Of a DNA stretch of 64,000 nucleotides, positions 1,633 to 64,000 are shown piece after piece. Origin of the DNA: Marsupella aquatica (Eukaryota; Plantae; Marchantiophyta); assembly GCA_973895155.1 (NCBI GenBank), contig OZ316893.1:17709281-17773280 (forward strand), given 5' to 3'. The translations under genes and the position numbers were made by a program. The notes under the pieces are model-generated. The model ran no database searches and was not told the DNA's origin. It worked only from the letters and a program-made list of their open reading frames with translations. Positions within the stretch are counted from its first letter, which is position 1; every line of letters begins with the position of its first letter.

Positions 1633-1644
1633 TGGTATCAGAGC
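1633..1644 (+). promoter_or_regulatory. Primer binding site (initiator tRNA-Met)
   Basis: TGGTATCAGAGC 2 nt after the LTR end. Confidence 0.92.
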
Positions 1645-32830: not shown

Positions 32831-32959
32831 TTAAAGAACCCAAGAGATATGAAAATTAAAATACTCAATAGTCATTCCAGACACCGGTCATAATTGTAGA
32901 GTCATTGATATAGTTGATAACCTTTCCACTAAGTGCGAGACACAATAGACATCATTGTC

Positions 32960-44577: not shown

Positions 44578-44586
44578 TAAGACTCC

Positions 44587-47500
44587 TGTGATGCCTAGAT
44601 AGGAATCACTCGGCCGGTTAAGTGGGTAAAGCAGGAAGGCACCCTAGGAACACCTTAGTATAGTGACAAAACAAGGAAAATATAAACAATTAGGGGCAAC
44701 CATGGAACCCGGGCAGAGGCCGGAGGTAAGGCTAAGGGTGAAAACCCAATTAGGGTTAGGGCGCGTTAAGCGTCGGCGGCTAGGAAGGATCAACGGGAAG
44801 AAGGACCGGCAGAGGAGAGGGGTAAGGAGCGCTTGCAGGAGATGGTGGCTCATTTGCGAGCACGAACTAGGCAGACGACTACGGGAGGCCAACTACTGTC
44901 AGCTGCTTAGGCAAGCACTCGGGGAGAGAGTAGATACCGACGATCAACCTAAGGAGGGTATGAGCAACATCAATCAAGCGGCACATTTCTGGGGATGCCT
45001 GTTCGAACGGGCAACTGAGTACATCAAGACTTACGAGGACGAGGAGTCAGAAAGGGCAGCTCGAGAACGGCAGGAGCTCGCTCGATTGTGGGAGCTGCAG
45101 AAGACGGCTTTCTTAGGAGGCGAACTCATCAAGGACGAGTTCCTGTGGACGCCTACTTCCAATCAACTCGACGATCTTCTGTTTTGCAAAGACAGCATCG
45201 TCGGCATCCGAGAGGCCATCAAGAACTGCAACGACATACACTGGGAATTAAAGGGTAGCACGGAAAGGTGGACCCAGGCAACGGTGCTAGGAGAAACCTC
45301 CACGGCAGCAGAGATGAAGAGGAAGGGAGCCGTCAACGATGAAGCCACCCCGGCAAAAAGAACAAGGTCGGCGGCACCAAAGAAGCCAGCCGAGCAGCAG
45401 AGCAGGAGGCAGGGAGAAGCCGAAGAGGAGGAGGTCGATCCCATCAAGGCCATTCCAACCAGGGATGACACCTGGAAGGGCTGGGCGGCAACCCTACCGG
45501 TGGAGGTGCAACTACATTTTGCACGGGAGGAGGATGCATGCTTTACGGCCATGCAGACCAAGAAGTACCAAGGCTTCATGGCCGGATCCGGCTTGGAGGC
45601 CTTTGTAAGATTACCATGGCTGAAGCCGGAGGTACCGGAGTCAGACCTATTAGAATTCGTGGGGTCATGGGAACCCGAGACCAATTGCACGAGGATATAT
45701 GGGAAGGATTTCTATCTTACTCCCAAGGTAATTGCCGAAGTGTTTGGCCTGCCGATAGGCAATAAGACCAAAGTTGATACCAGGAAGACCTTGCCTGACA
45801 AGGAGTTCCGGTCGTTCCCCGGGCCATCAACGAAGAATGGCTTCTTCCGGAACACCTGCACCAACCCGCACATAGGAGAGATGATCGACTTCTTGCGGGT
45901 GACCATGCATTGTAACTTACCGAGGGCAGAGATCGGCAAGGCACAGGTCTATCTGGCAGAAAGGCCAGACCCAAGCCGGGACTACAACGGGTACCTCCTC
46001 AACCAATTGAAGAAGATCTTAAAGGAGGAGCAGCAGGTAATCGGCATGGGGAGCGTGTCGCGGCTTGGCTATCACATGCCGCTGTTGTGCCGGTATGCCA
46101 GAAGTCAGACTTTTGCCCCGGTACTTCCCCTGCAGGTAAGGGCACCCGAGGAAGCTCCAACGCCGAGGCCGTTGGCTGAGAAGCCTCAACCACCTGTTAG
46201 TCCTACGATCGAGCAGGTGTTTAGGCCCAGGAAGGAAGACTTGCCAATGCAGCAACCAGGCATGCAGAGTCTGCTGAAACTACTGGAGAAAGAAAAGAAA
46301 TCGGCATCGGCAACAACAACGGCAACGGCAACAATGCAGGACACTACTACAGAGGTAGGCCTACACCGGCTCACAAGAGAAAACCCCTTTGCTGGAGACA
46401 AGGAGAGAATCAGGCCGGAATCCAAGCCAGGTGTTCGAATGTACGTGGGAACCTCAAGCTCCGAATCTGAGGCAGAATTGCCTGAAGCTCCTACCGACGA
46501 AGAGGAGAGGGAGAAGCCGGACGTCCAAGAGGTAGAGGAGGCAGTGGAGGACTGCAGCCATGATAATTCCGGCTATGGGTCGGACCATCACGTTCCAGGA
46601 GTAAGGACCTGTGGCCGGTTTGTCCCCACACTTCCAAGGGTAGTGCGAGGGGACCCCAACCAGCAGAGTAGCCCTGAGTCTCCCCCACCAGATGTTGCTC
46701 CCCCGAGCTTCGACGGCATAAAACAGACGGTGCAGGAATTTCAGGAGCGAATCAAGCAGGAGGAAGAGGCCGCCCTGGCTAAGGAAAAGGATTTACCAGG
46801 AGGAGATTGGCCGGAGGACATCAGGCGGCTAGCCGAAAAAGGAAGCAAACCTCTAGCCACGATTGAAGAGATCCGTAGGACGGCTTGGGAGCAGAGGCCA
46901 CGATGGGCGATGCCGATCACTTCTACTTACTCCACCTACGCTAAGAATAGAGCCATGGAGTATGGTGAGATGTGTGGGGAACTTGCGCTCGGCATCTTTG
47001 GAGAGGAGTTGGAGATAGGACCCTTTTTCCATAGGGAGCAGTTGGAGAAGCACCAATTAGAAGAAGCGGTGGCTTTAGAGAGAAGCAAGAAGGACGAGGT
47101 CATTCGGCGGCTTAGGAGGATGGGAGCCGAGATTGAAGATCTAAGGGCGGCCAAGAAAGCCCAAGATGAACTGCGGATTAAACGACATGAGCTGAACATC
47201 ATGCAGGGGCAGTTGGACACCGCGCAGGCTGATAATCAGAATATCAAGGATAAACTGACTCAGACGCAGGAAGAGTTGGCCGACACGATCAAAGAGAGGG
47301 AGAAGTGGAAGCAAGAACTAAAGAATACAGAGGAGGCCCACATAACAGCCAACAGCCGGGCCATGGCGGAGACCCAAAGAAAGGAATGGGCGTTGAAAGG
47401 GGAGCTCAAGAAAATCCGCGGAGCCCTTGAGCAGAAGGAGGTCGAGTTAGGGAAATCCTATCAAGGGATTATGGCGCTGCAGCAGGAGCTTGCGTCCCTG

Positions 47501-48597
47501 ACGGCCAGCTTCAAGGCCGACCTAAGGGAGAAGGACGAGATGCTCGAACAGACTTACGCCAAGATGAACCAGATGGAGTCTGTCATCATTGCAGAGCTCG
47601 ACAAGGAGCTAAGAGCAACCCAGGAGGAGAGGGCTACCTTGAAGAAGGAATTGGAGGAAGCCCACAGGGAGCAGGAGGAGGCCAAAAACGAGCTGGAGGG
47701 GGCACGTAAGGACCTGGATGAAACCCAAGAGGAGTTGGAGGAAATCACGAGGAAGATGGAGAACCTACAGCGGCGGGCCGACAACCAAACAGAGCGGCTG
47801 AAGAAACAAGCCGCAGTATTTAAATGCTTAGCTGCAGCAGGTCCATCTCCCGTTGGGACAAACCAGTTACCAGGGGTGGTAATTGCCGAAGGACAAGCCG
47901 CGTCAACTGCACCAGTGCCGGAAGTAAGTGGGAAGGGGAAGGGACCAGCTGCCGAGCCACCAACGAAGAAGAAGCGGAAACCTCCAGGGTCAAGGAGTAA
48001 TACGACTTCACAGGCCGTGGTGATCAAGGAGGTAGACCCAGCACCGACCCCAGACAGGGTCACGGCTAAGGATCCAACTACCCTAGGGGAAGGGGAGGCC
48101 GAAGCCGTGGGAGTGGCTGAGGCCGAAGCCGTGGGTATTGCCGAGGCCGGTGTCGAGGTTGAAGCCGAAGGTGGACCCAGTCAGGCCGATGGAGAGTTGA
48201 CTCGGTCAAGGGCAGGTAATCTGTCAGTAGGCGGGCCAACGGCAGTGGCTGAGGAGGAAGTGTTGGGGGCGTCCATTGAGGATCCACCACCGGTGTCGTG
48301 ACGGTGCAAGGGCGCCGTTCCTTTTAGGGAGGGCGGACGTGGAGGGAGGAGGCGTGAGTGGGCAGGGCGGGCGCGGATCTCCACGTTTAGGATTAGGATC
48401 AGAACCAGGAGCGGCCCTGACACTTAGCTTAGTGGGATTGCGGTCCCACTGGTAGGAGCAACACTTGTGCTCCTGCCTTGCTGTACATAGGTAGATTCGG
48501 GCAAGTAGATTACTGTCAGGTAGATTAGGCTTACGATGCAAAGAATGGCGGATCCACTACCAGGATAAGTACCTGGGCAGCGGGGAGCTCAGGGCCT
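44587..48597 (+). mobile_element. Putative gene-bearing LTR (element A) inserted in the CACTA transposase
   Basis: Composition shifts at TGTGATGCC (44587) where Tnp2 homology ends; contains one long ORF; cut by element B at 48598. Its other end is not identifiable. Confidence 0.5.
44702..48301 (+). CDS. ~1199-aa transposon accessory protein: PMD/Transposase_32-like domain + long coiled coil + basic NLS-like motif
   Basis: Uninterrupted frame (track start 44663 GTG, first ATG 44702). GLEAFVRLPW...LLEFVGSWEPETNCTRIYGKDFYLTPKVIAEVFGLPIG resembles the plant-mobile-domain W.PET..G...IT..V..LGLP signature. E/K/L-rich heptads ~47050-47820; PPTKKKRK. Confidence 0.8.
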   Translation: MEPGQRPEVRLRVKTQLGLGRVKRRRLGRINGKKDRQRRGVRSACRRWWLICEHELGRRLREANYCQLLRQALGERVDTDDQPKEGMSNINQAAHFWGCLFERATEYIKTYEDEESERAARERQELARLWELQKTAFLGGELIKDEFLWTPTSNQLDDLLFCKDSIVGIREAIKNCNDIHWELKGSTERWTQATVLGETSTAAEMKRKGAVNDEATPAKRTRSAAPKKPAEQQSRRQGEAEEEEVDPIKAIPTRDDTWKGWAATLPVEVQLHFAREEDACFTAMQTKKYQGFMAGSGLEAFVRLPWLKPEVPESDLLEFVGSWEPETNCTRIYGKDFYLTPKVIAEVFGLPIGNKTKVDTRKTLPDKEFRSFPGPSTKNGFFRNTCTNPHIGEMIDFLRVTMHCNLPRAEIGKAQVYLAERPDPSRDYNGYLLNQLKKILKEEQQVIGMGSVSRLGYHMPLLCRYARSQTFAPVLPLQVRAPEEAPTPRPLAEKPQPPVSPTIEQVFRPRKEDLPMQQPGMQSLLKLLEKEKKSASATTTATATMQDTTTEVGLHRLTRENPFAGDKERIRPESKPGVRMYVGTSSSESEAELPEAPTDEEEREKPDVQEVEEAVEDCSHDNSGYGSDHHVPGVRTCGRFVPTLPRVVRGDPNQQSSPESPPPDVAPPSFDGIKQTVQEFQERIKQEEEAALAKEKDLPGGDWPEDIRRLAEKGSKPLATIEEIRRTAWEQRPRWAMPITSTYSTYAKNRAMEYGEMCGELALGIFGEELEIGPFFHREQLEKHQLEEAVALERSKKDEVIRRLRRMGAEIEDLRAAKKAQDELRIKRHELNIMQGQLDTAQADNQNIKDKLTQTQEELADTIKEREKWKQELKNTEEAHITANSRAMAETQRKEWALKGELKKIRGALEQKEVELGKSYQGIMALQQELASLTASFKADLREKDEMLEQTYAKMNQMESVIIAELDKELRATQEERATLKKELEEAHREQEEAKNELEGARKDLDETQEELEEITRKMENLQRRADNQTERLKKQAAVFKCLAAAGPSPVGTNQLPGVVIAEGQAASTAPVPEVSGKGKGPAAEPPTKKKRKPPGSRSNTTSQAVVIKEVDPAPTPDRVTAKDPTTLGEGEAEAVGVAEAEAVGIAEAGVEVEAEGGPSQADGELTRSRAGNLSVGGPTAVAEEEVLGASIEDPPPVS

Positions 48598-51500
48598 TGT
48601 CACTTGCCTCTCCAACGGTTAATACGTGCAAACCGCACTTTTCTTCGCTTAAACCGTTGGTATCGTATTACGGGGTCGTGGAGGGACGCTATTTGGATTC
48701 TTTTCACACCAGGATGAGTATTTTGGTTTCCGCTCCCGGAAATGTAGGTTTTGATCAAGTCTACCGACTACCCTCACCCCACAGCTTTTGATCAAGTCCT
48801 GCCGACTACCCCACTACACCTTCACTCGGAGTCACCCAAAGAGTGCTGTCACCACCCCTACTCACAAGGCCGACTCAAACCAAGCAAGTTTCTTCAAATC
48901 ATAGAACGGGAGAACACAATTCGGAAAGCGAAAAAGGGAGAAGGAACACACAACAAAAGCCCATCAAGTCAAATGTACAGATCCATATCTCTTGGGAAAA
49001 ACGATACACATTGCATGAGTAACCCGGCCTCCTGCCGTCTACTCAACTCCTGCCTCTCCGGACAATGAGTATGGCTCCCCCTCACTACTCTGAACACGCT
49101 TTCAAACTCCTCAGGCTCCACTCTATCCCTCCTTGCTAACTTCACACTGAGTCCCCCTAACTACTTCGGGGCTATCCCCCTAAATACTGAAAAATCACAC
49201 CAAAGCACCCCTCACAGGGTCACAACGGTGGCGGCTACCCTAGCGGCGCCGCTAAAACCTTGCACTAAGAGAAATCCTTAAACTGAAGAGGAGCATGCGG
49301 CACACACATGCTGCTAAAACCCTAAACCCAAAACAAGGGGGCCGACGGTGCCTTCGACGGCGCCCCAACAGTACACGTGAACCCTGAAAGTGAGAGGCAC
49401 CCCAAAATGGCCGAAACTAGGTGCCCTTCCAAGTGCACACCTGAGCTCACCCCTGGATAGCTCTTCTTTTCCTGCTTCCGAATCACTAAGTCGCTCCCTC
49501 AACGGACTTCAGACGCCTGAGTTATGGCCGTTTCCGTACCGCAAAAACATAAGTTCTCCAGGCCATAACTTGCTCATCCTGGCTCCGTTTGAGGAGCGCC
49601 GCCTCTTGTTGGAATCAGCTCCGCGAGCTCATCCCAACAAGCCCATGAGTGACCCCCCACTAAAATGTTGGAAATCTGGAGGCCGTACACCCACGTCCGT
49701 ACGCCTATCTAATCCTCCTCTTCTTCTTCGCTCTCGGTGCCCGGACTTGTGCCCCGTGAGTGGTCCTCCTCCTCATCACTCACGGGAGTGAGTGCCACCG
49801 TACTTTTCTTCTTCTTCGACGGAGTACTCTTAGTGCTGCTGCTCCCGCGCTTCCTCAAAGCAGCCAAGGCCTGCCACGCCTTGATGTACCCCTCACCAAT
49901 TGTGTCCTTCCAGAGGGTAGCCTCTTCTCCGGACCGCAACTCCAACGGTAGAACTTGCCCCGTGGCCATGGGAGTCCCGGGGGTGACAGACCTGGGTGGC
50001 ATCCCCGTACTGACCTGAGCCTCCCGTAACGATTTCCGTACCTCCCGGAGCTTCTTCTCCAAGCTCTTACTCTTCTCCTGACTCTTCTTGGCTCCATCCA
50101 ACAAGGGTCCATACTTCCCACTAACCTCCTTCACCACCATCTCGATAGCTTGGGAGATCACATCCGGGGAAAGTGTGGAGCCAGGTGTGCCGGGACTCTT
50201 CCGTTTCCCTAGACTCAGGGCCTCACTTCTCTTCGCTCGTGTCTCAAAGGCTGCCACCTGACTCCGTAGTGCTCCCACCTGGTTCCTCCACTCCATCACT
50301 TCTCCAGAATTTTGCTTCTCTTTGGCCAATGCTTGCCTCAACGCTCCTACTTCTTCTGCTTCCTTGGCCTTGGTGGACAAAGCTCCCTTCAAGTTGGTGA
50401 TCTCTACGTGAGCTGCATTGATGTGCCTGACCTTCTCATGAATGGTCTGCTCCTTGGTCTTGATCACCTCCTTCAGTGACAGGATGCTCTGCTCTAACGT
50501 CTCTACTTTGACTGTGGCGTGCTTGAGAGACTCCCTCAATGCGTGGACTAGCTTGAGTCCCTCGTGGACTCCCTCTCTGAAATCCCGTAGCTCTGCCAAG
50601 TAAACATCCGGAATGTTGTATTCCAGAGGCTGTTTCGGATCTCCCACGAGTGATTCAAGCCACTCCAATGTGCAATCATCCTCCTGGTTCTCTTCTTCTC
50701 TATTATCCTCCCCACCAGCAGACAATGATTCCTCCGTGAGCTTCCCTAAAACGGTAGTGGCAATACTCCGGATCTCCGTGGTGAGAGATGATCCCGTGTC
50801 TTCATGCCCCGGAGAACCAATCAACCCTTCTGCCCTGGCCAATACAAATGACCCCATCAAATGTACAGCCCCACCTGGTTTCACACTCCCGGGCTCAGCG
50901 GCCAATAGCTTCTTCAATCCGTAGCACCACCATCCGTACACATGGGCTGGGTAGTTCTTGATGTCCATAGCTACCACGAAATGCTCCTCATTCAGCACTC
51001 CGGATTGCACGTTGCCAAGAACCCGTTGATGCACCTTGGCCAGGAAGCCCTTATACTCAACATCCTTGACAGCAGAAAGAGGGATGGCGGTGGTGGAGGT
51101 AGGATTGGTCACCCAAGTGGCCACCATTTTCAACGTGAGTTCTCCCCTGATATTCCGAGGTGTGAATGAGAATTTCTGATTCTCAAGAAACAATAGCTTA
51201 GCCAACTCCACATGGGGCACTACACGTTTGAGACATTCAAAGTAGATTCCCTCCGTTCGGAACTCCATCCCGGCCTCAATGTCCCAGCTCTTCCCTGAAG
51301 GGATGGTAATCTCCACCTTCATGAATTCTGTAAGCCCGGTGGCTTGGAAAATGTTCCGACAATCCTCCATCACCTTGGTGGAGGTCTTGGGATAAATTCG
51401 ACGAAAAATCTTCCTACCCACCGGTGAGGAACCCGCTGCCAATCCCGTGCTCATCATAACTTCTCTCTCTTCCCTTTCCCGTGTAATCCGAGTCTCCACG

Positions 51501-52582
51501 TAGTCACGGTAAGCAGCCTTGTATCTCCGAATGCGTGACGCACTAAACTCTGGTTGATCTAGCATCCATGCATCCCGAAATCAATTTCTCAATCACCAAT
51601 CCCGTCACCCGTGGCAATGTCAATTCCCTGGCCCGAAACAGCCCCCGTAGCCCGATCACTTAAATTCTCTCAATTTCCCGTCACTACTCCGTGCGGCCGC
51701 CACTAATGCCTGGAAGAATGACGCCAGCAAGCCCCACTAATCCACCATGAAAGAGAGAGCTTCAAAAATAATTAGAATCTGGAGAGAGCTTCCGGCAAGA
51801 GAGAGAAGAACCCCGTTTTTGCTTTCGGCAATGAGAGGGTCGTGCAAAAGGAAGAGGGAAAGAAAAAGGAAGGAAAAAAAAATAGAACCGAAAAAACTCC
51901 TGGCGCCTTCGCCATGCGCCCCGGCCCATTTCTCGGGCCTTACCCTTGCGTCCTCCTGCGCGCGGCCCTATGCAGGGCGCGCGGCCATTCCTCCCGGCTC
52001 GCGGGAGGCCCTTTAACTCCCCCCCGCTCGCGTGATCCTCCCAGCTCGCGGGAGGCCCTTTAACTCCCCCCCCCCCGCTCGCTTGCGCTCCTTCAGCTCG
52101 CGGAGCCTCATTAATTGCCCGGGCACGCAGCCCTATGGGCTCGCGAGGCAGCCCCTTCAGCTCGCGGAGCCCCATTAATCGCCCGGGCACGCAGCCCTAT
52201 GGGCTCGCGAGGCAGCCCCTCTTTCTCTCGGACGGCCACTAATGGGACTCGCCCTCCTGAGGAGGGATTTATTTAAAAAAAAACCCCCCCCTCTCCTGAC
52301 TTTGCAATGGGGGTCTCAACAATAGCTCTTGAAGCAAAACGGTAAGTCCTATGGGGCTGGTCCTGGCTAGTTTCAAGGTCCCAAAATATTTGCCCACTTA
52401 GGTCGCCGCAAATCTTAGAACTATTATGAGAGAAAGAATATAAAGTCACCTGGGGCATCATCAACCTATAATGACGGAATTAACTAAAAATTAAAAAATG
52501 GCTTATTTACATTGACTATTAACAAGGTATCGGCCTTTGCAACCAGTTATGTGTGACTTCCCGTGACGGGGTACCCGTCACA
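48598..52582 (-). repeat. 3' LTR of element B (3985 bp)
   Basis: TGTCAC...GTCACA; identity with 59201-63419 starts and stops exactly at these termini. Confidence 0.93.
49709..51565 (-). CDS. 618-aa LTR-encoded protein (3' LTR copy): PMD/Transposase_32-like region + coiled coil + basic/acidic tail
   Basis: ATG-to-stop ORF wholly inside the LTR. IFQATGLTEFMKV..LAKLLFL..YGWWCYGLKKLL; heptad-rich region; PSKKKKS. The domain call is by eye. Confidence 0.85.
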   Translation of the reverse strand: MLDQPEFSASRIRRYKAAYRDYVETRITREREEREVMMSTGLAAGSSPVGRKIFRRIYPKTSTKVMEDCRNIFQATGLTEFMKVEITIPSGKSWDIEAGMEFRTEGIYFECLKRVVPHVELAKLLFLENQKFSFTPRNIRGELTLKMVATWVTNPTSTTAIPLSAVKDVEYKGFLAKVHQRVLGNVQSGVLNEEHFVVAMDIKNYPAHVYGWWCYGLKKLLAAEPGSVKPGGAVHLMGSFVLARAEGLIGSPGHEDTGSSLTTEIRSIATTVLGKLTEESLSAGGEDNREEENQEDDCTLEWLESLVGDPKQPLEYNIPDVYLAELRDFREGVHEGLKLVHALRESLKHATVKVETLEQSILSLKEVIKTKEQTIHEKVRHINAAHVEITNLKGALSTKAKEAEEVGALRQALAKEKQNSGEVMEWRNQVGALRSQVAAFETRAKRSEALSLGKRKSPGTPGSTLSPDVISQAIEMVVKEVSGKYGPLLDGAKKSQEKSKSLEKKLREVRKSLREAQVSTGMPPRSVTPGTPMATGQVLPLELRSGEEATLWKDTIGEGYIKAWQALAALRKRGSSSTKSTPSKKKKSTVALTPVSDEEEDHSRGTSPGTESEEEEED

Positions 52583-55500
52583 TAGCTCCTCTCTTAATTG
52601 CGAAGCGCCCCCGCGAGCACCATACTCTTCCTCCGTGTAGTACTTCTTTAGGCGCTCTTGATTGATCCGTGTGTTGAGTAGTTGCCCCTCCAATGTCTTG
52701 AGTTGAACCGAGCCGTTGGAGTAGACGGCATCCACTACGTAGGGTCCCATCCACCGTGTATGCAACTTCCCGGGGAAATGCATGAAGCGGCTATCGTAGA
52801 GGAGCACCAAATCTCCCTCCTCAATGGACACACGACGGAGACGGGAATCGTAATGTGACTTGCGTTTGCCTTGCTCCTGCTCCGTATGTGTCAAAGCCTC
52901 TTCTCGTGTCTCCGTGAGTTGCTCCAACTGTTGGATCCGTGAAGCGACACTTTCTTCTGCCCCTTCCCTTTCCCGTGTTAGGATTCGAATGGTTGGAACC
53001 TCAAATTCCACCGGCACAAGAGAGTGTTGTCCAAACACAAGGAAATAGGGGCTGTGGCCCGTGGTAGTCTTGTGAGCCAGGTTGTAAGCGTAAGTGGCAG
53101 CCAACAACTTCAAATCCCAATCGGTCTTGTGAGCGGATACCGTTTTGTTGAGGATCTTGCCCATGATCCCGTTGGCTCTCTCAGTGAGCCCGTTGGCTCG
53201 AGGGTGGTACGGAGTGGTCTTCCTATGTGAGATCAAGTAGTTCTCCGTCAAACGTTCAATCGTATGATTGAGGAAGTGAGTACCCCTGTCACTTACCAAC
53301 TCCAATGGTGGACCAAATCGTGTAAAAATCTGCTCATACAAAAAACGTGCCGTGGTGTTGGCATCATCCTTGGCAGTAGCTCGGGCCTCCACCCACTTGG
53401 TGGCATAGTCCGTTGCAAGAATGATGTAGCGCTTCCTCCCTCTTCGTGTGATGGGAGTGAAAGGGCCAATGAAGTCCACCCCCCACTTCTCAAAGGGTGC
53501 AAGAGGAAGTATGGGCACCAATGGGTGTCGTGAGGAGGGCCCTGGTTTGCCTTGACGCTGGCACGGATCACATCGCTGGATGTACCGGTGTACATCCCGA
53601 AAGAGAGTTGGCCACCAATATCCAGCATCTAGTATTTTCCTTGCGGTGGTCTCCCGTGCAAAGTGGCCACCAGCTTCCTCCTCATGTAATGCTGCCATGA
53701 CTGTACGTATCTCCGCTTCCTCCAAACAACGACGAAGTCGGCCATCCATGCCGTACTTGTGAAGTACTCCCTTCACAAGCAAGTAGGGACCTGTCTTACG
53801 CAAAAACACTGCTGCTCTCTCCGGGCCCAAACGTGAGGGAACTCTAGCCGTGCGGAGAAATTCCAAAATTTCTCCATACCAAGTAGTGGCCTCTGTATTC
53901 ACGCTGAACACTTCCTCATCCGGGAACCGATCATCAATCTCCTGGGAGTCAGATGCTCCCTCAATACGGGAGAAGAAGTCTGCATTGCTATGACTCTTCC
54001 CCGATCTTACTCTCACCTCATAGTTGAACTCTTGTAGCAACAAAACCCAACGTGCAATTCTCCCGGACAGATCTGGCTTGTTGACCATGTATTTCAAGCT
54101 GTTGTGATCCGTGTGGAACACAACCTTGTACCCCAACAAATAATGACGATACTTCTTACAAGCGTAGATGATACCAAGTGCCTCCCTATCGGTGGGTGAG
54201 TAGTTTTTCTCTGCCGGGGCCAACTGCCTACTGGCAAAGTAGATGGGATGGTCTCTTCCATCATCATCTAACTGACTCAAAACGGCACCGATGCAAAATC
54301 CTGATACGTCTACGTAAACATGGAATTCCTTATTCCAATTGGGCGTAATGAGCACGGGGGCCTCTAGCAATCGTTTCTTCAATTCATCAAAAGCAGCCTG
54401 ACGGGAAGGAGTAGGTTCAAACTCACTTCCTTTTTTCAACATGGAAGTGAGTGGCATGGCTACCTTGGCAAAGTCTTTGATGAAGCGTCGGTAGTAGCCA
54501 ACACACCCCAAGAACCCTCTCACTTCCTTCACATTCTTGGGAAATGAGACTGCTACCCACACGGCGACCTTCTCACGATCAACTTCAATCCCTCGTGCAG
54601 ACACTTTGTGGCCCAATAGGATTCCCTCCTCAATTCCAAAGAAACATTTCTCCGGATGCAGCTTCAGGCAAGTCTCCCGGCACCGCTGAAAAGTCAACCG
54701 TAAGTGTTCCGGATGCTTGACTCGTTTGCCGTAGACAGCAAAGTCATCAATAAAGATCTCCAAGAACCTGCGTAAAAAGTCATGAAATATATTCATCATG
54801 AGCCGTTGGAACATGCCAGGGGCATTGCACAACCCAAAAGGCATTCTCCGGAATGCAAAAATCCCCCACTCTGTTGTGAAAGCCGTCTTGAGTTGGTCCT
54901 CCTCCCGTATCCAGATTTGGTTGTACCCAGAGTAGCCATCCAAGAAGCTGTATATCTCCCAACCTGCTACCATGTCCAACACGATATCCGTGAACGGTAG
55001 CGGGTAGTGATCCTTCTTGGTCGCATCATTCAACTTTCGAAAATCTTGGCACACCCGTATTTTCACCTTCCCGTCTGGCCCCTTTTTCTTGGGCACGATT
55101 ACGATGGGTGACACCCACTCACTATGCATGACCGGATAAATGAATCCTGCATCCAACAAACGGTCAATCTCCTCCTTCACCATGAGTGAGTATTTGGGGT
55201 TGAGGCGGTATTGGCGTTGCCTCACAGGTCGTGCTCCTGACATCAGGTCAATGCTGTGCTCACCAAACTCAGGTGGCACTCCTTTCAAATCTTGGTGGCT
55301 CCACGCAAATACGTCTTGGTACTCTTTCAACAATTCCTGAATCGTGCGTTGCTCCGTAGCATCCAACTTACTACCAATGTTGAGTGTCTTGCCCTCACCC
55401 ACTTCCACCTTTGTGTACTGCTCCGGCCTGATCACGTCCAACTTGTTGCGTGTCTCCTCATCAAAGGTTTCTTCCAACCGTGCGAGCCTCATCCCTCCAT

Positions 55501-58500
55501 ACACCGGTGCATCACTCTCCTCCTGGTCTGGTCGGGATGGAGGTGGATCCTTTGTCACATGGGCCATTATTTCTTCAACGTCAGATTCTTTGTAATGTGA
55601 CAATAGCTCCTCTCTAAAGTCATCATCCAGGATGTCATTCAAAAACTGCTCTCTTTGCTCATCATCAAACATGATCGTGTGGGCTTGCATTTCCACCTCC
55701 TCGGGGTGATCCTCTGCCTCCCTATCATGAATCTCTAGAGGTTCAGCCTCCACAATTTTGCTTCGCTCGTCTTCCATCTCTTCTAGAACAGCGTGCACTT
55801 GGCTAACTGATTCCTCTACTGCATGCTCTTGAGTAGCAACTCCGGGGCCAAAAACATCTTCCTCCGTGAGGTGAGAAATCAGTTTCACCATGTATACTTC
55901 ATCCTCGTCTTCATCTGAGGTGACCTCTGAATCATATTCCTCCTCCATAGTCGTAGTCTCCCCGTGAGGTGACTCCGCTGACCATGGAATAGTGATAGTG
56001 GGGATACCAAACCGAAACTGCCGTTTGCCCCAATCACTTGTGACCTTGGCCACATACAACCATGGCCTGCCAATTAAAATGGGAAAACCGTACGGCCGAA
56101 CGGGTCGCATCACCAAATAGTTGAGGGGGAAAGATTTTCCCCCAATCATTGTTGGAATCTTGGTGAGACACCCCAACGGCACCACCCGTGCACCATCAGC
56201 CAACCTCATGGCACGTGCCGGTGGTTCTAACTCTGTATACCCCAACCGGTTTGCCGTCTCCTCAGTCATGATGTTGACTCCCGAGCCCCCGTCCACCGGT
56301 ACAAACCGTATTGCACATCCATTGATGTCCACCGTGAGTTCTGGGGCACCCAAATCCTCCGTGACCCAGTTGACTTGTATGGGGTCAGCCCCAACTTTGG
56401 GTAACCTTCTTCTACGTCTCCTCCTCATGAGAATCTCCTTGACTTGGCGACGGTATAGGGAGCTATCCCGTAATAGTTGACCAATTGTGGCACTGACTGG
56501 GCAATCCAGAATGTCTTGAGCAATGTTGTACGCGGTTGCAGGAGGTATGGGTGGGATGACCTCTTCTCCCGGTTTCCAACGAACAACCCTCTCCTCCGCT
56601 TTCTTTCTGGCCTTTGCCTCCTCCATGTCTTTGTCAATGGCCGCTTGCATGGCTTGTGCTTCTAGCTCCTCCAACTGCTTACGTACCTCTTCTCCCACCT
56701 TCGGATAGAACAACTTGGGGTTGTCCCGATCAAAGTCACTATCCTCCATGGGTGGCACCTCCGGTTCGTGTGAGGTACCCGATGTGGAAGCTTGATGCAC
56801 CTCCTTGTACTTCTGCTTGAGCTCGGACTTGCCCTTCTTTTTGCCGGATCGAGTGGAGACTCGGTAACAAGAGTAATGCCTTCTCTCCTCGTCGCTGTCT
56901 TCCTCCGGTAGATTCTCAGCATGAGTCCACTCATGACTTGGGGGTGAGGGGTTAGCAACTTCAACTTCCGTAGATGTTGCAACAACAACCACCGGTATCT
57001 CAACAACTGGAGATACTACAACGACTAGCGGTACCACCTCCTCCGTTATGGTGGTCATCCTTTGCTTGGGAATGTTCACTACGGTTTCTTCTCTTCTAGT
57101 GATTAGAGGGGTGTCGACTGCTTCCGTGGTGAGAAAGTTGACGCTAGCTTCTTTCAGAGGAGGTGGCGGCCCCTTCTTCTCTTGTGCCCCAATCGGTTGA
57201 GCCTTGAACGCCTCCAAGGTTGGGCAGTGTGGTGCAAGATGACCCTCCCCCTTGCATAGTTGACACAGCCGGGCAAAATCTCCATTGCCTTGACGGGTGG
57301 GCTCTGGGCACACATTAGCGTAGTGGCCCGCCACTCTACAATTGTAACAAATAGGGATCTTCCTCACTCCAGGGTACGGTGGTCGATTCCCTGGGTTAGC
57401 GTTGGGATAGTTGGAGTATGCGGGTGCTCCGGCGTTTGTTGAAACTCCATGAATGCTCCGTGGTCCCGGGTTGAGAGGTTGTACACTATACACGTTGGCC
57501 TCTGGTGGCTCCTCCATGAAGTACTCTATTGGCCCTTCCGCTGCATATGAAGGATTTGAGTAGCTTGCCCCCTCAACATCCTCCTCCCGTACTTGGAAAA
57601 CCTTGGCTGGTTCTCCCGCTGGGCACTCCTTCGGGGCATGACCAAACTTCATGCACTTGGTGCACCACACATTGGCTCTCTCCACCGGAACTTTTCTCCT
57701 CTCAGGTTTGAGTCCGGCAAAATGTACTTTCAACGCTTTCATTTGCTCCGTCAGCTCATCATATCTGGCCTCTTGCTCCTTCAGGCGTCTTGCCGTAGAC
57801 AATGGTGTAACGGCCACCGTGGGTAGTATCACTTCACGGTGAGAGGACTTCTTGACTTTCTTTGACAACTTCTTCTTCTTCCTCCTTCGTCTTTCAGCTT
57901 CTGACTCCGTAGTGTCTGACTCTGTAGTACTCTCAGAATCCTCAGATTCATCACTACTATCTGAATCAGATCCACTCGACTCCTCACTGGAGGAACTGTC
58001 AACCGGCTTCAGCTTCTTTCTTCGGCAACGCTTGCTTGTGGCATCAGCTGCGGTGTATGACTCCGCTGCTGCAATAGCTTCAGCCAATGTGGTTGGCTTG
58101 GCTTGACGTACAAAGAACCCCATCTTGCTTGGTAGGGCAGCCACAAACCAGGCTTGACGCATAGCATCATCGGTACGGGCTTGGATCCGACGTACCAGCT
58201 TTTGGAACCTTTGCAAAAACCTCCGTAATGACTCCTTCTTCTTCATCCTGAGTTGGCCCACCTTTAATAGTGAGGTGGCCTCCACTCCTATGGATCTGAA
58301 CTCCTTCAAGAAGGCTTGCTTGAACAGAGCCCAATCAGCTTTCACGTTGGCCAACAACGAAATGAACCATGGACCTGCCTCCCCTCTCATCATTCCAGGA
58401 ATGATAGTGAGCTTATGTGCAGACTCCCCATTAGCTTCGGCAATCCCTTCAAACTCCTCAATCCATTCGTCTGGATCATCCTTTGGTCTCCCCTTGAAGG

Positions 58501-58945
58501 GTACGTACTGAACACGGGTACGTTGTGCAGCTGCCATCGGTGCAGCCGGTGCCTGTATCAACACAGGTGGTAATGGCGCTTGTTGGGCCACCGGTAACAG
58601 CACCGATGATAGGTGTGAGATGATTTGTGGCAATGCAGTGAGCTCTGGGATCAGATTTTGTAACTCAGACTGCACCAACACAAAGGGCTCTCCTTCTTCT
58701 CGCTCGTGATCTATGTCTGGCTCTTCGTCTGGGCATATGGCCTCATTACGTTGAGCCTCTTCCTGTTGCACACCAACTTGTTCTTCCAGCACCAGTGGCA
58801 ACCTCCTCTCTTCTGCAAGCCGTAAGCGTTCTTCGGCAGCAACTCGTCGTCTGGTCCCAATCCAAGAGGGCCCCCCTTCTAGCTCTGATCTTGGGGTACG
58901 TGTGTGTTGGGGACTTCCTCTACCTCCCCTTCTCCCTCTCGGCAT
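52547..58945 (-). CDS. gag-pol: Gag-Pol polyprotein (2132 aa)
   Basis: Gag with three CCHC knuckles; protease VDGGSGVN; RT (RVCQDFRKLN, FLDGYSGYNQI, MPFGLCNAP, FIDDF); RNase H (YVDVSG, TDHNSL, NADFFSR); integrase (GGHF..CDPCQ, WGVDFIGP, SDRGTHF, NGLTERAN, WMGPY). No chromodomain. The stop lies inside the 3' LTR. Confidence 0.96.
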   Translation of the reverse strand: MPRGRRGGRGSPQHTRTPRSELEGGPSWIGTRRRVAAEERLRLAEERRLPLVLEEQVGVQQEEAQRNEAICPDEEPDIDHEREEGEPFVLVQSELQNLIPELTALPQIISHLSSVLLPVAQQAPLPPVLIQAPAAPMAAAQRTRVQYVPFKGRPKDDPDEWIEEFEGIAEANGESAHKLTIIPGMMRGEAGPWFISLLANVKADWALFKQAFLKEFRSIGVEATSLLKVGQLRMKKKESLRRFLQRFQKLVRRIQARTDDAMRQAWFVAALPSKMGFFVRQAKPTTLAEAIAAAESYTAADATSKRCRRKKLKPVDSSSSEESSGSDSDSSDESEDSESTTESDTTESEAERRRRKKKKLSKKVKKSSHREVILPTVAVTPLSTARRLKEQEARYDELTEQMKALKVHFAGLKPERRKVPVERANVWCTKCMKFGHAPKECPAGEPAKVFQVREEDVEGASYSNPSYAAEGPIEYFMEEPPEANVYSVQPLNPGPRSIHGVSTNAGAPAYSNYPNANPGNRPPYPGVRKIPICYNCRVAGHYANVCPEPTRQGNGDFARLCQLCKGEGHLAPHCPTLEAFKAQPIGAQEKKGPPPPLKEASVNFLTTEAVDTPLITRREETVVNIPKQRMTTITEEVVPLVVVVSPVVEIPVVVVATSTEVEVANPSPPSHEWTHAENLPEEDSDEERRHYSCYRVSTRSGKKKGKSELKQKYKEVHQASTSGTSHEPEVPPMEDSDFDRDNPKLFYPKVGEEVRKQLEELEAQAMQAAIDKDMEEAKARKKAEERVVRWKPGEEVIPPIPPATAYNIAQDILDCPVSATIGQLLRDSSLYRRQVKEILMRRRRRRRLPKVGADPIQVNWVTEDLGAPELTVDINGCAIRFVPVDGGSGVNIMTEETANRLGYTELEPPARAMRLADGARVVPLGCLTKIPTMIGGKSFPLNYLVMRPVRPYGFPILIGRPWLYVAKVTSDWGKRQFRFGIPTITIPWSAESPHGETTTMEEEYDSEVTSDEDEDEVYMVKLISHLTEEDVFGPGVATQEHAVEESVSQVHAVLEEMEDERSKIVEAEPLEIHDREAEDHPEEVEMQAHTIMFDDEQREQFLNDILDDDFREELLSHYKESDVEEIMAHVTKDPPPSRPDQEESDAPVYGGMRLARLEETFDEETRNKLDVIRPEQYTKVEVGEGKTLNIGSKLDATEQRTIQELLKEYQDVFAWSHQDLKGVPPEFGEHSIDLMSGARPVRQRQYRLNPKYSLMVKEEIDRLLDAGFIYPVMHSEWVSPIVIVPKKKGPDGKVKIRVCQDFRKLNDATKKDHYPLPFTDIVLDMVAGWEIYSFLDGYSGYNQIWIREEDQLKTAFTTEWGIFAFRRMPFGLCNAPGMFQRLMMNIFHDFLRRFLEIFIDDFAVYGKRVKHPEHLRLTFQRCRETCLKLHPEKCFFGIEEGILLGHKVSARGIEVDREKVAVWVAVSFPKNVKEVRGFLGCVGYYRRFIKDFAKVAMPLTSMLKKGSEFEPTPSRQAAFDELKKRLLEAPVLITPNWNKEFHVYVDVSGFCIGAVLSQLDDDGRDHPIYFASRQLAPAEKNYSPTDREALGIIYACKKYRHYLLGYKVVFHTDHNSLKYMVNKPDLSGRIARWVLLLQEFNYEVRVRSGKSHSNADFFSRIEGASDSQEIDDRFPDEEVFSVNTEATTWYGEILEFLRTARVPSRLGPERAAVFLRKTGPYLLVKGVLHKYGMDGRLRRCLEEAEIRTVMAALHEEEAGGHFARETTARKILDAGYWWPTLFRDVHRYIQRCDPCQRQGKPGPSSRHPLVPILPLAPFEKWGVDFIGPFTPITRRGRKRYIILATDYATKWVEARATAKDDANTTARFLYEQIFTRFGPPLELVSDRGTHFLNHTIERLTENYLISHRKTTPYHPRANGLTERANGIMGKILNKTVSAHKTDWDLKLLAATYAYNLAHKTTTGHSPYFLVFGQHSLVPVEFEVPTIRILTREREGAEESVASRIQQLEQLTETREEALTHTEQEQGKRKSHYDSRLRRVSIEEGDLVLLYDSRFMHFPGKLHTRWMGPYVVDAVYSNGSVQLKTLEGQLLNTRINQERLKKYYTEEEYGARGGASQLREELCDGYPVTGSHT
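52583..52595 (-). promoter_or_regulatory. Polypurine tract of element B
   Basis: Minus strand AAGAGAGGAGCTA immediately before the 3' LTR start TGTGAC, within pol coding sequence. Confidence 0.7.
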
Positions 58946-59160
58946 CCCATTGAGACCTGCATTCCAAACTTACACCAATGTCTCAGAAAGCAATATTTGT
59001 AAACATCAACCGTCGCACGATGCGTTGTGGTTGACGTACAATAACAAAGTAACCAACAAACTTCTCACGTATCAACCGTCGCAAGTTGCGTTGTGGTTGA
59101 TAGGTTTGAACTCCCAATAGACGTAGCTCCCCTCCTTCGTGTCGTCAAACAAGAAGAAGG

Positions 59161-59180
59161 ATTCCCCGGCAGCGGCGCCA
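59161..59180 (-). promoter_or_regulatory. Primer binding site (tRNA-Asp type)
   Basis: TGGCGCCGCTGCCGGGGA, one mismatch from the Athila-type TGGCGCCGTTGCCGGGGA. Confidence 0.85.
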
Positions 59181-60311
59181 AAAACAAAAGACCACACTTA
59201 TGTCACTTGCCTCTCCAACGGTTAATACGTGCAAACCGCACTTTTCTTCGCTTAAACCGTTGGTATCGTATTACGGGGTCGTGGAGGGACGCTATTTGGA
59301 TTCTTTTCACACCAGGATGAGTATTTTGGTTTCCGCTCCCGGAAATGTAGGTTTTGATCAAGTCTACCGACTACCCTCACCCCACAGCTTTTGATCAAGT
59401 CCTGCCGACTACCCCACTACACCTTCACTCGGAGTCACCCAAAGAGTGCTGTCACCACCCCTACTCACAAGGCCGACTCAAACCAAGCAAGTTTCTTCAA
59501 ATCATAGAACGGGAGAACACAATTCGGAAAGCGAAAAAGGGAGAAGGAACACACAACAAAAGCCCATCAAGTCAAATGTACAGATCCATATCTCTTGGGA
59601 AAAACGATACACATTGCATGAGTAACCCGGCCTCCTGCCGTCTACTCAACTCCTGCCTCTCCGGACAATGAGTATGGCTCCCCCTCACTACTCTGAACAC
59701 GCTTTCAAACTCCTCAGGCTCCACTCTATCCCTCCTTGCTAACTTCACACTGAGTCCCCCTAACTACTTCGGGGCTATCCCCCTAAATACTGAAAAATCA
59801 CACCAAAGCACCCCTCACAGGGTCACAACGGTGGCGGCTACCCTAGCGGCGCCGCTAAAACCTTGCACTAAGAGAAATCCTTAAACTGAAGAGGAGCATG
59901 CGGCACACACATGCTGCTAAAACCCTAAACCCAAAACAAGGGGGCCGACGGTGCCTTCGACGGCGCCCCAACAGTACACGTGAACCCTGAAAGTGAGAGG
60001 CACCCCAAAATGGCCGAAACTAGGTGCCCTTCCAAGTGCACACCTGAGCTCACCCCTGGATAGCTCTTCTTTTCCTGCTTCCGAATCACTAAGTCGCTCC
60101 CTCAACGGACTTCAGACGCCTGAGTTATGGCCGTTTCCGTACCGCAAAAACATAAGTTCTCCAGGCCATAACTTGCTCATCCTGGCTCCGTTTGAGGAGC
60201 GCCGCCTCTTGTTGGAATCAGCTCCGCGAGCTCATCCCAACAAGCCCATGAGTGACCCCCCACTAAAATGTTGGAAATCTGGAGGCCGTACACCCACGTC
60301 CGTACGCCTAT

Positions 60312-62168
60312 CTAATCCTCCTCTTCTTCTTCGCTCTCGGTGCCCGGACTTGTGCCCCGTGAGTGGTCCTCCTCCTCATCACTCACGGGAGTGAGTGCCA
60401 CCGTACTTTTCTTCTTCTTCGACGGAGTACTCTTAGTGCTGCTGCTCCCGCGCTTCCTCAAAGCAGCCAAGGCCTGCCACGCCTTGATGTACCCCTCACC
60501 AATTGTGTCCTTCCAGAGGGTAGCCTCTTCTCCGGACCGCAACTCCAACGGTAGAACTTGCCCCGTGGCCATGGGAGTCCCGGGGGTGACAGACCTGGGT
60601 GGCATCCCCGTACTGACCTGAGCCTCCCGTAACGATTTCCGTACCTCCCGGAGCTTCTTCTCCAAGCTCTTACTCTTCTCCTGACTCTTCTTGGCTCCAT
60701 CCAACAAGGGTCCATACTTCCCACTAACCTCCTTCACCACCATCTCGATAGCTTGGGAGATCACATCCGGGGAAAGTGTGGAGCCAGGTGTGCCGGGACT
60801 CTTCCGTTTCCCTAGACTCAGGGCCTCACTTCTCTTCGCTCGTGTCTCAAAGGCTGCCACCTGACTCCGTAGTGCTCCCACCTGGTTCCTCCACTCCATC
60901 ACTTCTCCAGAATTTTGCTTCTCTTTGGCCAATGCTTGCCTCAACGCTCCTACTTCTTCTGCTTCCTTGGCCTTGGTGGACAAAGCTCCCTTCAAGTTGG
61001 TGATCTCTACGTGAGCTGCATTGATGTGCCTGACCTTCTCATGAATGGTCTGCTCCTTGGTCTTGATCACCTCCTTCAGTGACAGGATGCTCTGCTCTAA
61101 CGTCTCTACTTTGACTGTGGCGTGCTTGAGAGACTCCCTCAATGCGTGGACTAGCTTGAGTCCCTCGTGGACTCCCTCTCTGAAATCCCGTAGCTCTGCC
61201 AAGTAAACATCCGGAATGTTGTATTCCAGAGGCTGTTTCGGATCTCCCACGAGTGATTCAAGCCACTCCAATGTGCAATCATCCTCCTGGTTCTCTTCTT
61301 CTCTATTATCCTCCCCACCAGCAGACAATGATTCCTCCGTGAGCTTCCCTAAAACGGTAGTGGCAATACTCCGGATCTCCGTGGTGAGAGATGATCCCGT
61401 GTCTTCATGCCCCGGAGAACCAATCAACCCTTCTGCCCTGGCCAATACAAATGACCCCATCAAATGTACAGCCCCACCTGGTTTCACACTCCCGGGCTCA
61501 GCAGCCAATAGCTTCTTCAATCCGTAGCACCACCATCCGTACACATGGGCTGGGTAGTTCTTGATGTCCATAGCTACCACGAAATGCTCCTCATTCAGCA
61601 CTCCGGATTGCACGTTGCCAAGAACCCGTTGATGCACCTTGGCCAGGAAGCCCTTATACTCAACATCCTTGACAGCAGAAAGAGGGATGGCGGTGGTGGA
61701 GGTAGGATTGGTCACCCAAGTGGCCACCATTTTCAACGTGAGTTCTCCCCTGATATTCCGAGGTGTGAATGAGAATTTCTGATTCTCAAGAAACAATAGC
61801 TTAGCCAACTCCACATGGGGCACTACACGTTTGAGACATTCAAAGTAGATTCCCTCCGTTCGGAACTCCATCCCGGCCTCAATGTCCCAGCTCTTCCCTG
61901 AAGGGATGGTAATCTCCACCTTCATGAATTCTGTAAGCCCGGTGGCTTGGAAAATGTTCCGACAATCCTCCATCACCTTGGTGGAGGTCTTGGGATAAAT
62001 TCGACGAAAAATCTTCCTACCCACCGGTGAGGAACCCGCTGCCAATCCCGTGCTCATCATAACTTCTCTCTCTTCCCTTTCCCGTGTAATCCGAGTCTCC
62101 ACGTAGTCACGGTAAGCAGCCTTGTATCTCCGAATGCGTGACGCACTAAACTCTGGTTGATCTAGCAT
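60312..62168 (-). CDS. 618-aa LTR-encoded protein (5' LTR copy)
   Basis: Same translation as 49709-51565, offset 10603 bp; one synonymous difference seen (50900 vs 61503). Confidence 0.85.
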   Translation of the reverse strand: MLDQPEFSASRIRRYKAAYRDYVETRITREREEREVMMSTGLAAGSSPVGRKIFRRIYPKTSTKVMEDCRNIFQATGLTEFMKVEITIPSGKSWDIEAGMEFRTEGIYFECLKRVVPHVELAKLLFLENQKFSFTPRNIRGELTLKMVATWVTNPTSTTAIPLSAVKDVEYKGFLAKVHQRVLGNVQSGVLNEEHFVVAMDIKNYPAHVYGWWCYGLKKLLAAEPGSVKPGGAVHLMGSFVLARAEGLIGSPGHEDTGSSLTTEIRSIATTVLGKLTEESLSAGGEDNREEENQEDDCTLEWLESLVGDPKQPLEYNIPDVYLAELRDFREGVHEGLKLVHALRESLKHATVKVETLEQSILSLKEVIKTKEQTIHEKVRHINAAHVEITNLKGALSTKAKEAEEVGALRQALAKEKQNSGEVMEWRNQVGALRSQVAAFETRAKRSEALSLGKRKSPGTPGSTLSPDVISQAIEMVVKEVSGKYGPLLDGAKKSQEKSKSLEKKLREVRKSLREAQVSTGMPPRSVTPGTPMATGQVLPLELRSGEEATLWKDTIGEGYIKAWQALAALRKRGSSSTKSTPSKKKKSTVALTPVSDEEEDHSRGTSPGTESEEEEED

Positions 62169-62599
62169 CCATGCATCCCGAAATCAATTTCTCAATCACC
62201 AATCCCGTCACCCGTGGCAATGTCAATTCCCTGGCCCGAAACAGCCCCCGTAGCCCGATCACTTAAATTCTCTCAATTTCCCGTCACTACTCCGTGCGGC
62301 CGCCACTAATGCCTGGAAGAATGACGCCAGCAAGCCCCACTAATCCACCATGAAAGAGAGAGCTTCAAAAATAATTAGAATCTGGAGAGAGCTTCCGGCA
62401 AGAGAGAGAAGAACCCCGTTTTTGCTTTCGGCAATGAGAGGGTCGTGCAAAAGGAAGAGGGAAAGAAAAAGGAAGGAAAAAAAAATAGAACCGAAAAAAC
62501 TCCTGGCGCCTTCGCCATGCGCCCCGGCCCATTTCTCGGGCCTTACCCTTGCGTCCTCCTGCGCGCGGCCCTATGCAGGGCGCGCGGCCATTCCTCCCG

Positions 62600-63057
62600 G
62601 CTCGCGGGAGGCCCTTCAACTCCCCCCCGCTCGCGTGATCCTCCCAGCTCGCGGGAGGCCCTTTAACTCCCCCCCGCTCGCGTGATCCTCCCAGCTCGCG
62701 GGAGGCCCTTTAACTCCCCCCCGCTCGCGTGATCCTCCCAGCTCGCGGGAGGCCCTTTAACTCCCCCCCGCTCGCGTGATCCTCCCAGCTCGCGGGAGGC
62801 CCTTTAACTCCCCCCCGCTCGCGTGATCCTCCCAGCTCGCGGGAGGCCCTTTAACTCCCCCCCGCTCGCGTGATCCTCCCAGCTCGCGGGAGGCCCTTTA
62901 ACTCCCCCCCCCCGCTCGCTTGCTCTCCTTCAGCTCGCGGAGCCTCATTAATTGCCCGGGCACGCAGCCCTATGGGCTCGCGAGGCAGCCCCTTCAGCTC
63001 GCGGAGCCCCATTAATCGCCCGGGCACGCAGCCCTATGGGCTCGCGAGGCAGCCCCT
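62600..63057. repeat. CG-rich 47-bp tandem repeat x6 plus ~63-bp repeat x2 in the LTR
   Basis: CCCTTTAACTCCCCCCCGCTCGCGTGATCCTCCCAGCTCGCGGGAGG repeated six times; only one full unit in the other LTR (~52009-52055). Confidence 0.93.
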
Positions 63058-63419
63058 CTTTCTCTCGGACGGCCACTAATGGGACTCGCCCTCCTGAGGA
63101 GGGATTTATTTAAAAAAAAACCCCCCCCTCTCCTGACTTTGCAATGGGGGTCTCAACAATAGCTCTTGAAGCAAAACGGTAAGTCCTATGGGGCTGGTCC
63201 TGGCTAGTTTCAAGGTCCCAAAATATTTGCCCACTTAGGTCGCCGCAAATCTTAGAACTATTATGAGAGAAAGAATATAAAGTCACCTGGGGCATCATCA
63301 ACCTATAATGACGGAATTAACTAAAAATTAAAAAATGGCTTATTTACATTGACTATTAACAAGGTATCGGCCTTTGCAACCAGTTATGTGTGACTTCCCG
63401 TGACGGGGTACCCGTCACA

Positions 63420-63611
63420 GGTGGAAAACAAATATACCTATGACTAATACGAATTACGTAAGTGTTATACCAGTAAGTTTATCAACTTAGCCCGACTTAG
63501 GGCTAAACGGGGCCACTACACACCTCCTTGCCCGAACCCTCACCCCTACTGGTGGTCGAGGTTGCGCCATGGAACTAAACTAGATTTAAGGCCCAGGTTA
63601 GGGACGCGACA
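63420..63611 (-). mobile_element. Probable terminal piece of a third LTR (element C)
   Basis: Minus strand begins TGTCGCGTCCC exactly where transposase similarity ends. Confidence 0.45.
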
Positions 63612-64000
63612 CCAAGCCCTGGTCATGTTTGAAATCCCGCACTCCTTGCTTATCTTCATCCTCTCTGCAGTTGTTCCTGCCCTGGTCATGTTCCTGGCCG
63701 CCTCCCTCACCTCTTCAATTTTCCGTGTAGGTGGTGGATATCTCATCTGCATCCTATTGTTGTCATACACAGCCCTTCCCAGAAAACCTGGGGGTTGTGA
63801 TTGGTCAATCTCCTTTCGAGGATGATCAAACTTGCACTTCATCCATCGAGTGCTCATTTTACAATTCCTACAAGCGGAATAACCTGTAACATTCCAGCCC
63901 CCAAATTTACATTGTGCGGGATGATCTCTAGTGAAAACTGCTAACAGTGCTCGTAGCACACACCTAGGGTCATTTGGTACATTATACTCTTCAGCCAATA
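63612..64000 (-). pseudogene. Fragment of a CMC/EnSpm-like DDE transposase, interrupted
   Basis: LRALLAVFTRDHPAQCKFGGWNVTGYSACRNC (D.PA..K..G...C..C motif) and A.TTAERMKISKECGI; continues beyond the window. Confidence 0.65.

Follow-up and report, generated by a model that had tools for sequence, protein, structure and literature searches.

A young Athila-like retrotransposon of the liverwort Marsupella aquatica with a conserved protein gene inside its long terminal repeats

Long terminal repeats (LTRs) of plant retrotransposons are customarily treated as non-coding, and the extra open reading frames (ORFs) of these elements have been described in the internal region, between the LTRs (review PMC7264820; likewise in excerpts of REXdb, PMC6317226). 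A 64,000-nt stretch of Marsupella aquatica DNA (contig OZ316893.1, positions 17,709,281 to 17,773,280; hereafter the window) contains a Ty3/gypsy element that departs from this custom, each of its LTRs holding a 1.9-kb gene. Does this gene belong to the LTR of the family, and what could it do there? Our reading, to which we assign a probability of about one half, is that the window contains a young, intact Athila-like Ty3/gypsy element, whose LTR carries a whole conserved accessory gene, likely in the unique 3' region (U3), and that this gene likely encodes a VANC-like nuclear anti-silencing factor.

The element is 14,822 bp long, lies on the minus strand (48598-63419) and has an internal region of 6,618 bp, which is nearly all one ORF (Table 1). 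The preliminary description of this locus had reported two LTRs of 3985 and 4219 bp bounded by TG..CA, a primer-binding site (PBS) and a polypurine tract (PPT), and all of these are in the sequence. It had also reported an intact 1857-bp ORF in each LTR, which was borne out: both copies are in the sense of gag-pol, they are one synonymous base apart, and the 618-aa proteins that they encode are identical. When the LTR was simulated by an order-3 Markov model (n = 500), the longest frame free of stops measured 159 codons in the median and 309 at most; none of the simulated LTRs reached 618 codons, which rejects a chance ORF. The remaining five frames across the ORF have 16-34 stops each. The protein is laid out as an N-terminal helix, the globular domain, an acidic linker, a conserved segment (residues ~300-345), the coiled coil and a tail that is first basic and then acidic. 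The coiled coil is predicted by a heptad scan and by coiled-coil Pfam matches below the cut-off, and homologues have basic clusters that correspond to those near residues 454 and 584. Neither a membrane helix nor a signal peptide was found in the protein, the highest 19-residue hydropathy being 1.09. In agreement with the earlier view that this is not an envelope protein, we reject such a function for want of a hydrophobic helix.

The gag-pol ORF is intact. Its domains follow the order gag, three zinc knuckles, protease, reverse transcriptase, RNase H and integrase, the motifs checked being present, while neither an additional RNase H (aRH) nor a chromodomain was matched in Pfam at E ≤ 1. The two LTRs differ by three substitutions and by one 234-bp indel, which corresponds to five units of the 47-bp tandem repeat. 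With three differences in 3,985 bp and the flowering-plant rate of 1.3e-8 (PMC2844528), the insertion would be ~30,000 years old, a rough figure as two of the differences adjoin the tandem array. This copy is young.

The ends of the LTRs are defined by the PBS and the PPT, and one of them also by a relative. Among 23 pol-related loci, only one (L002, in metagenome contigs, 62% identical across pol residues 1817-2130) is close enough for the boundary to be compared, and none of the 23 matched the 618-aa ORF family (tblastn, E ≤ 0.1). L002 has a matching PPT and an identical LTR start directly behind pol, and the LTR start of the element is therefore independently confirmed. Moreover, since the PPT of L002 lies right behind pol, the compact internal region predates the present family. 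A query of viral contigs with pol gave no usable loci. The preliminary description had pol running straight into the 3' LTR, and indeed the final 36 nt of gag-pol (58945 to 52547) fall within that LTR. The overlap does not stand as a special feature, and we reject it as a designed one, because pol of L002 terminates ahead of the PPT; most simply, it probably reflects a lost stop codon. At the other end, 20 nt (59181-59200) separate the 5' LTR from the PBS and are missing at the 3' end of the element. Trimming of a retroelement DNA copy usually removes 2 nt from the ends, and given this spacer the DNA copy of the present element would need more. We also observed a near-perfect palindrome of ~18 nt right behind the TG of the LTR start (63400-63419; 52563-52582). 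A distant gypsy relative (L001, 2-9200), which was set aside as another lineage, has a very long polyprotein with an apparent second protease-like region after the integrase, and two PPT-like tracts that flank a 2-kb spacer, itself containing a frame of 243 codons.

Sequencing depth was used to assess whether the family at large, and not only this copy, has the ORF within its LTR. In six of the 14 public runs listed, from four studies and under three organism labels, 0.74-0.94 of the sampled words are present. Four runs (X1, X2, X3 and X7) were compared over 52400-62400, where the first kilobase of the LTR is represented only by 183 nt of the 3' LTR start; X7, with 0.27 of the sampled words in short low-depth contigs, was left out of the ratios. 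The ratios rest on 32 of 4,747 contig pieces (eight per run), restricted to contigs that show one difference or none, and contig depth is by the tool's own warning not copy number. In X1, six internal contigs have depths of 686-724, and the LTR contigs have 1,572 (non-coding) and 1,599 (ORF), a ratio of 2.24 from a run that may be the window's own source. In X3, three internal contigs (2,729-2,934) compare with four ORF contigs (6,034-6,330), a ratio of 2.22 once a contig with 45 differences is excluded. In X2, five internal and two ORF contigs are scattered and give 1.49, a contig with nine differences being excluded. A ratio just above 2 fits elements with two LTRs each and a small number of solo LTRs, while an internal ORF would give 1. 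The 2.2-fold depth in two runs thus upholds, for the family as a whole, the earlier proposal of an accessory gene within the LTR, and we consider it very likely that this is where the family carries the ORF. The indels among those listed (12 of 32) include ten of 1-2 bases, all outside the ORF, and two of 3 bases each inside it, in the acidic tail, a pattern that may be taken as weak support for selection on the ORF. Over 57000-62400, the element sequences in runs X1-X6, which come from four studies and bear three organism labels, are near-identical; close relatives, mixed samples or transfer may account for this.

The 618-aa protein has relatives beyond this element. A full HMMER scan recovered 13 at E ≤ 0.001, which jointly span residues 1-179 and most of 287-617. 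They include fragments at 43-62% identity, one with the same start, and four of the ten homologues looked up are proteins of the leafy liverwort Calypogeia fissa (27-32% identity; 25-33% for the Calypogeia homologues overall). Two profile searches yielded only two extra Calypogeia proteins (P0015 and P0016); a word-indexed search with the single 618-aa protein gave no match, and a query of metagenome contigs with the ORF gave no loci. Judged by these alignments, the protein is conserved.

What fold it might have was approached through its homologues. In the Atlas structure search with the Calypogeia homologue P0009, eight of ten rows have TM scores of 0.58-0.68, among them Transposase_32 (0.67), ATHILA (0.68), a cluster with 14% PMD (0.64) and DUF1985 (0.58), while P0015 gave PMD clusters by feature search (0.86-0.87) and Transposase_32 at TM 0.46; every one of these rows is below the tool's bar for naming a family and concerns homologues at most 28% identical to the 618-aa protein, not that protein itself. 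We regard these matches as a consistent lead, not an assignment. The comparison with PMD, Transposase_32 and Athila ORFs that had been proposed at the outset was thus well aimed in that the homologue models point there, and fell short of an assignment in that they do so below the bar and with no Pfam match. The AlphaFold2 models of the 618-aa protein, built from 9-10 sequences, have pLDDT values of 45.5 and 50.4, too poor for fold testing. With these low-pLDDT models Foldseek yielded nothing at E ≤ 0.001 and VIA gave best Z scores of 3.8 and 3.1; VANC21 was not among the VIA matches of models too poor for this to count as a test. Sequence searches of the PDB returned zero, two (weak and unrelated, best E 0.035) and zero matches. 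On the homologue models, a fold of the PMD/Transposase_32/ATHILA/DUF1985 type is probable.

Upstream of the ORF, the LTR contains GC-rich tandem arrays. The hexamers CGCGAG/CTCGCG are concentrated there, 19 of the 20 in the LTR being in the arrays (LTR nt 372-814), as against one in the 6.6-kb internal region and seven in the 48.6 kb left of the element; these copies sit in tandem repeats and are thus not independent. As for VANC, then, a short motif has multiplied in the element's non-coding tandem repeats, with a putative role as target.

As for the place of the ORF within the LTR, a gene in R or U5 (the repeated and unique 5' regions) would require a strong-stop DNA of more than 3 kb, which is why U3 is favoured. 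Two signs behind the ORF may add weak support: a TATA-like hexamer (LTR nt 3631) and a UGUA/U-rich sequence (nt 3809-3890). We consider it likely that the ORF lies in U3. At LTR nt 3659, TGTGA follows a run of purines that might be a vestigial PPT; the LTR has 12 runs of this kind, and this one was not counted.

How does the element compare with known systems? For REXdb (PMC6317226), FIDEL (PMC2844528), VANC, MMTV, the rice elements and MAIN/MAIL, the comparisons that follow draw on excerpts of the sources. The closest likeness is to Athila, whose primer is mainly tRNA-Asp (72%) and whose ATHILA ORF-1 is a sense extra ORF 3' of pol, with 166 matches in REXdb (PMC6317226). The present element shares a tRNA-Asp PBS offset from the LTR end (20 nt, as compared with 9 nt in FIDEL; PMC2844528), a single gag-pol ORF with no aRH or chromodomain, a size within 7.3-22.8 kb, and a sense extra ORF 3' of pol, with homologues that resemble ATHILA/Transposase_32 models (PMC6317226). 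However, Athila has a long spacer from pol to the 3' LTR and its extra ORF there, whereas pol of the present element reaches the LTR and the ORF is within it. Because this spacer with its ORF is missing, we call the element Athila-like and not a plain member of Athila. Phygy and Selgy, also from seed-free plants, have polyproteins that fill almost all of the internal region, but they are short (<10 kb), have no extra ORF and use tRNA-Trp or tRNA-Ala primers, which sets the element apart from them (PMC6317226). Retrosat2/RIRE3/RIRE8 of rice likewise combine LTRs of more than 3 kb with an extra ORF; that ORF0, however, is described in the excerpt upstream of gag-pol and nowhere within the LTR (PMC3485330).

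For a protein gene in the LTR, the parallel is MMTV sag, which is present at both ends and is retained by solo LTRs, but which belongs to an animal retrovirus, is mostly but not wholly in U3, and encodes a membrane superantigen unrelated to the 618-aa protein (PMC4667437). In the literature searched, which was partly judged by title or the start of the abstract and which left most subscription papers outside its coverage, no precedent was found for a protein gene inside a plant LTR. Cassandra elements have a 5S RNA gene in the LTR. Sense extra ORFs between the LTRs (Athila) and an LTR gene in MMTV were known.

For the function of the protein, the comparison is with VANC and PMD proteins. The extra ORF of Ogre is PMD (PMC6317226), VANC is structurally like MAIN/PMD, and both VANC and the Athila domain are predicted to oligomerise via coiled coils (PMC13547354; bioRxiv 2024.09.27.615353). 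The binding sites of VANC are short motifs that have multiplied in non-coding tandem repeats (PMC5735166). Similarly, the 618-aa protein has a globular domain followed by a coiled coil, a homologue model resembles DUF1985/PMD clusters, and the element has motif-rich non-coding tandem repeats. In contrast, VANC belongs to VANDAL, Mutator-like transposons, while the present element is an LTR retrotransposon of a liverwort; the two proteins have no sequence match, and the fold and activity of the 618-aa protein are putative.

From these comparisons we propose the following scheme. The first 3.1 kb of the LTR resembles a pol-to-LTR spacer, GC-rich arrays being followed by the ORF, and tandem arrays are typical of this spacer in Retand (PMC11963269). 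Priming would have shifted to a PPT behind pol, which would have turned the former spacer into U3; alternatively, an ancestor whose internal region was already compact may have captured the ORF in its LTR. Genomic RNA would begin in the 5' LTR at a point downstream of the ORF and carry the ORF once, at its 3' end, and reverse transcription would then place a copy at both ends. The ORF would be transcribed separately, from a promoter near the GC-rich arrays. In the protein, the globular domain would bind the repeated motif of the arrays and the coiled coil would mediate oligomerisation. Silencing marks would be lowered on full copies and on solo LTRs, and the latter would keep providing the factor in trans. 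That the protein is an anti-silencing factor acting on the LTR arrays rests on analogy with VANC, and we hold it tentatively, at a little under even odds.

Several observations weigh against this reading. No target-site duplication was found, the 5 bases flanking each side being different where a clean insertion is expected to leave 4-6 bp; this concerns the history of this copy, not the family. Because the duplication is absent, the copy is probably rearranged, and we infer that it probably arose by recombination between two young members of the family or is missing a flank. The LTR contains no canonical TATA box. A PPT behind pol that is older than the family fits capture of the ORF as well as a shift of the PPT. 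The depth evidence carries the low ratio of X2, the possible shared source of X1 and the general caution on contig depth given above. As for the fold, the structural rows share the shortfall already stated, and Pfam has no match for the globular domain or the homologues at E ≤ 10. Nor would a shared fold settle the function, as the group includes, besides Athila ORFs of unassigned function, the host silencing factors MAIN/MAIL1 (PMC5418596).

The alternative that survives best, although we think it unlikely, accepts a gene in the LTR and has it expressed like env from a spliced subgenomic RNA; the protein would act on RNA or on the particle (export, packaging, nuclear entry) and not on chromatin, and solo LTRs would be silent for the ORF. 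In keeping with it are a donor-like site that precedes the gag start by 30 nt, two acceptor-like sites ahead of the ORF (LTR nt 1029 and 1099), the missing canonical TATA box, and the reported splicing of Bagy2 to a sense extra ORF (PMC7264820). However, another donor-like site, at LTR nt 872, would suit an LTR-internal transcript, in which it would create a leader intron, and the homologues suggest a fold group in which the members that have been studied work on chromatin. Somewhat less likely again is that the protein is a chromatin factor of the PMD-type fold group, yet a plain transcription activator or a self-limiting MAIN/MAIL-like repressor, not a remover of marks. The fold works both ways, since MAIL1 and MAIN silence transposons (PMC5418596) and MAIN/MAIL also shield genes from Polycomb (bioRxiv 2024.09.27.615353). 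Against this, by argument and not by test, a young multi-copy element profits more from anti-silencing, and the motif-rich tandem arrays resemble the VANC pattern. Finally, it is very unlikely that the 4-kb repeat arose by local duplication, by recombination or through an error of assembly, the true family LTR being short and the ORF internal. Against the absent target-site duplication, the flanks from different transposons and the ratio of 1.49 in X2 stand the PBS and PPT at the ends of the 4-kb repeats, an ORF 2.2 times deeper than gag-pol in X1 and X3 and as deep as the non-coding LTR in X1, and the LTR start confirmed by L002.

Table 1. Features of the element and its immediate neighbours (window coordinates)
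Feature	Position	Strand	Description
5' LTR	59201..63419	-	4,219 bp, TG...CA; self-BLAST and global alignment
3' LTR	48598..52582	-	3,985 bp, TG...CA; five 47-bp units fewer than 5' LTR; self-BLAST and global alignment
618-aa ORF, 5' LTR copy	60312..62168	-	1,857 bp, LTR nt 1252-3108
618-aa ORF, 3' LTR copy	49709..51565	-	1,857 bp, same protein
Conserved globular domain	61434..62006	-	Residues ~55-245; in homologues, a likeness to Transposase_32/ATHILA/PMD/DUF1985 models (a lead)
Coiled-coil region	60609..61181	-	Residues ~330-520 (predicted); basic cluster at 454 common to homologues
GC-rich tandem arrays	62592..63057	-	Upstream of ORF; 47 bp x 6.8, 64 bp x 2; candidate binding sites
gag-pol single ORF	52547..58945	-	2,132 aa; Pfam and catalytic motifs
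PBS, tRNA-Asp type	59163..59180	-	17/18 bases as in the PBS printed for FIDEL; 20 nt past LTR end
PPT	52586..52595	-	3 nt ahead of 3' LTR, within pol reading frame; same boundary in L002
Left neighbour, outside element: 1,199-aa coiled-coil ORF	44702..48301	+	Separate ORF
Right neighbour, outside element: CACTA transposase fragment	63546..63998	-	Pfam Transposase_21, E 1.5e-4

The flanks of the element belong to different transposons, the CACTA on the left and the CACTA fragment on the right being on opposite strands. On the left, the 1,199-aa ORF starts 115 nt past a TGTGA start (44587-48597, plus strand) that interrupts a CACTA transposase gene, and TGTGA is also the first five bases of the element's LTR. 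This ORF probably sits in a truncated gene-carrying LTR of another family. No sequence link between the 618-aa protein and this neighbour was found by BLASTP, by hhalign or by profile comparison against 300 shuffles. In the CACTA-type cluster itself (41503-44591, plus strand), a PHD-finger ORF (NSD-like PHD, Pfam above cut-off) accompanies a transposase-associated domain and Transposase_21, and is possibly a chromatin-reader cargo. Elsewhere in the window are a host NIN-like protein gene in exons (10993-14001, minus strand) with GAF_NLP and RWP-RK matches, a decayed Ty1/copia-type pol (20870-23833, minus strand) in three ORF pieces, whose translations were read by eye, and a tandem array (32908-36948) of ~580-bp units at 74-79% identity.

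A broader view would be that an Athila-like liverwort lineage moved an anti-silencing gene together with its target repeats into the LTR, so that each LTR would be self-activating. Recombination between LTRs, by which hosts usually delete these elements, would then leave a working factory for a factor that reawakens the family, and at least two protein families that share no detectable sequence similarity would sit in such LTRs of one genome. We consider this doubtful as a whole. A gene in the LTR means a double dose per insertion, and one that outlasts the formation of solo LTRs. If solo LTRs keep the gene, the main route by which such elements are removed would become a route of gene dispersal. 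Annotators will record ORF-bearing solo LTRs as orphan host genes, and the Calypogeia fissa homologues may be LTR genes treated in this way. With a candidate protein and its candidate target repeats in one 4-kb unit, the element offers a compact test system for the function of the extra ORFs of Athila, Ogre and Retand.

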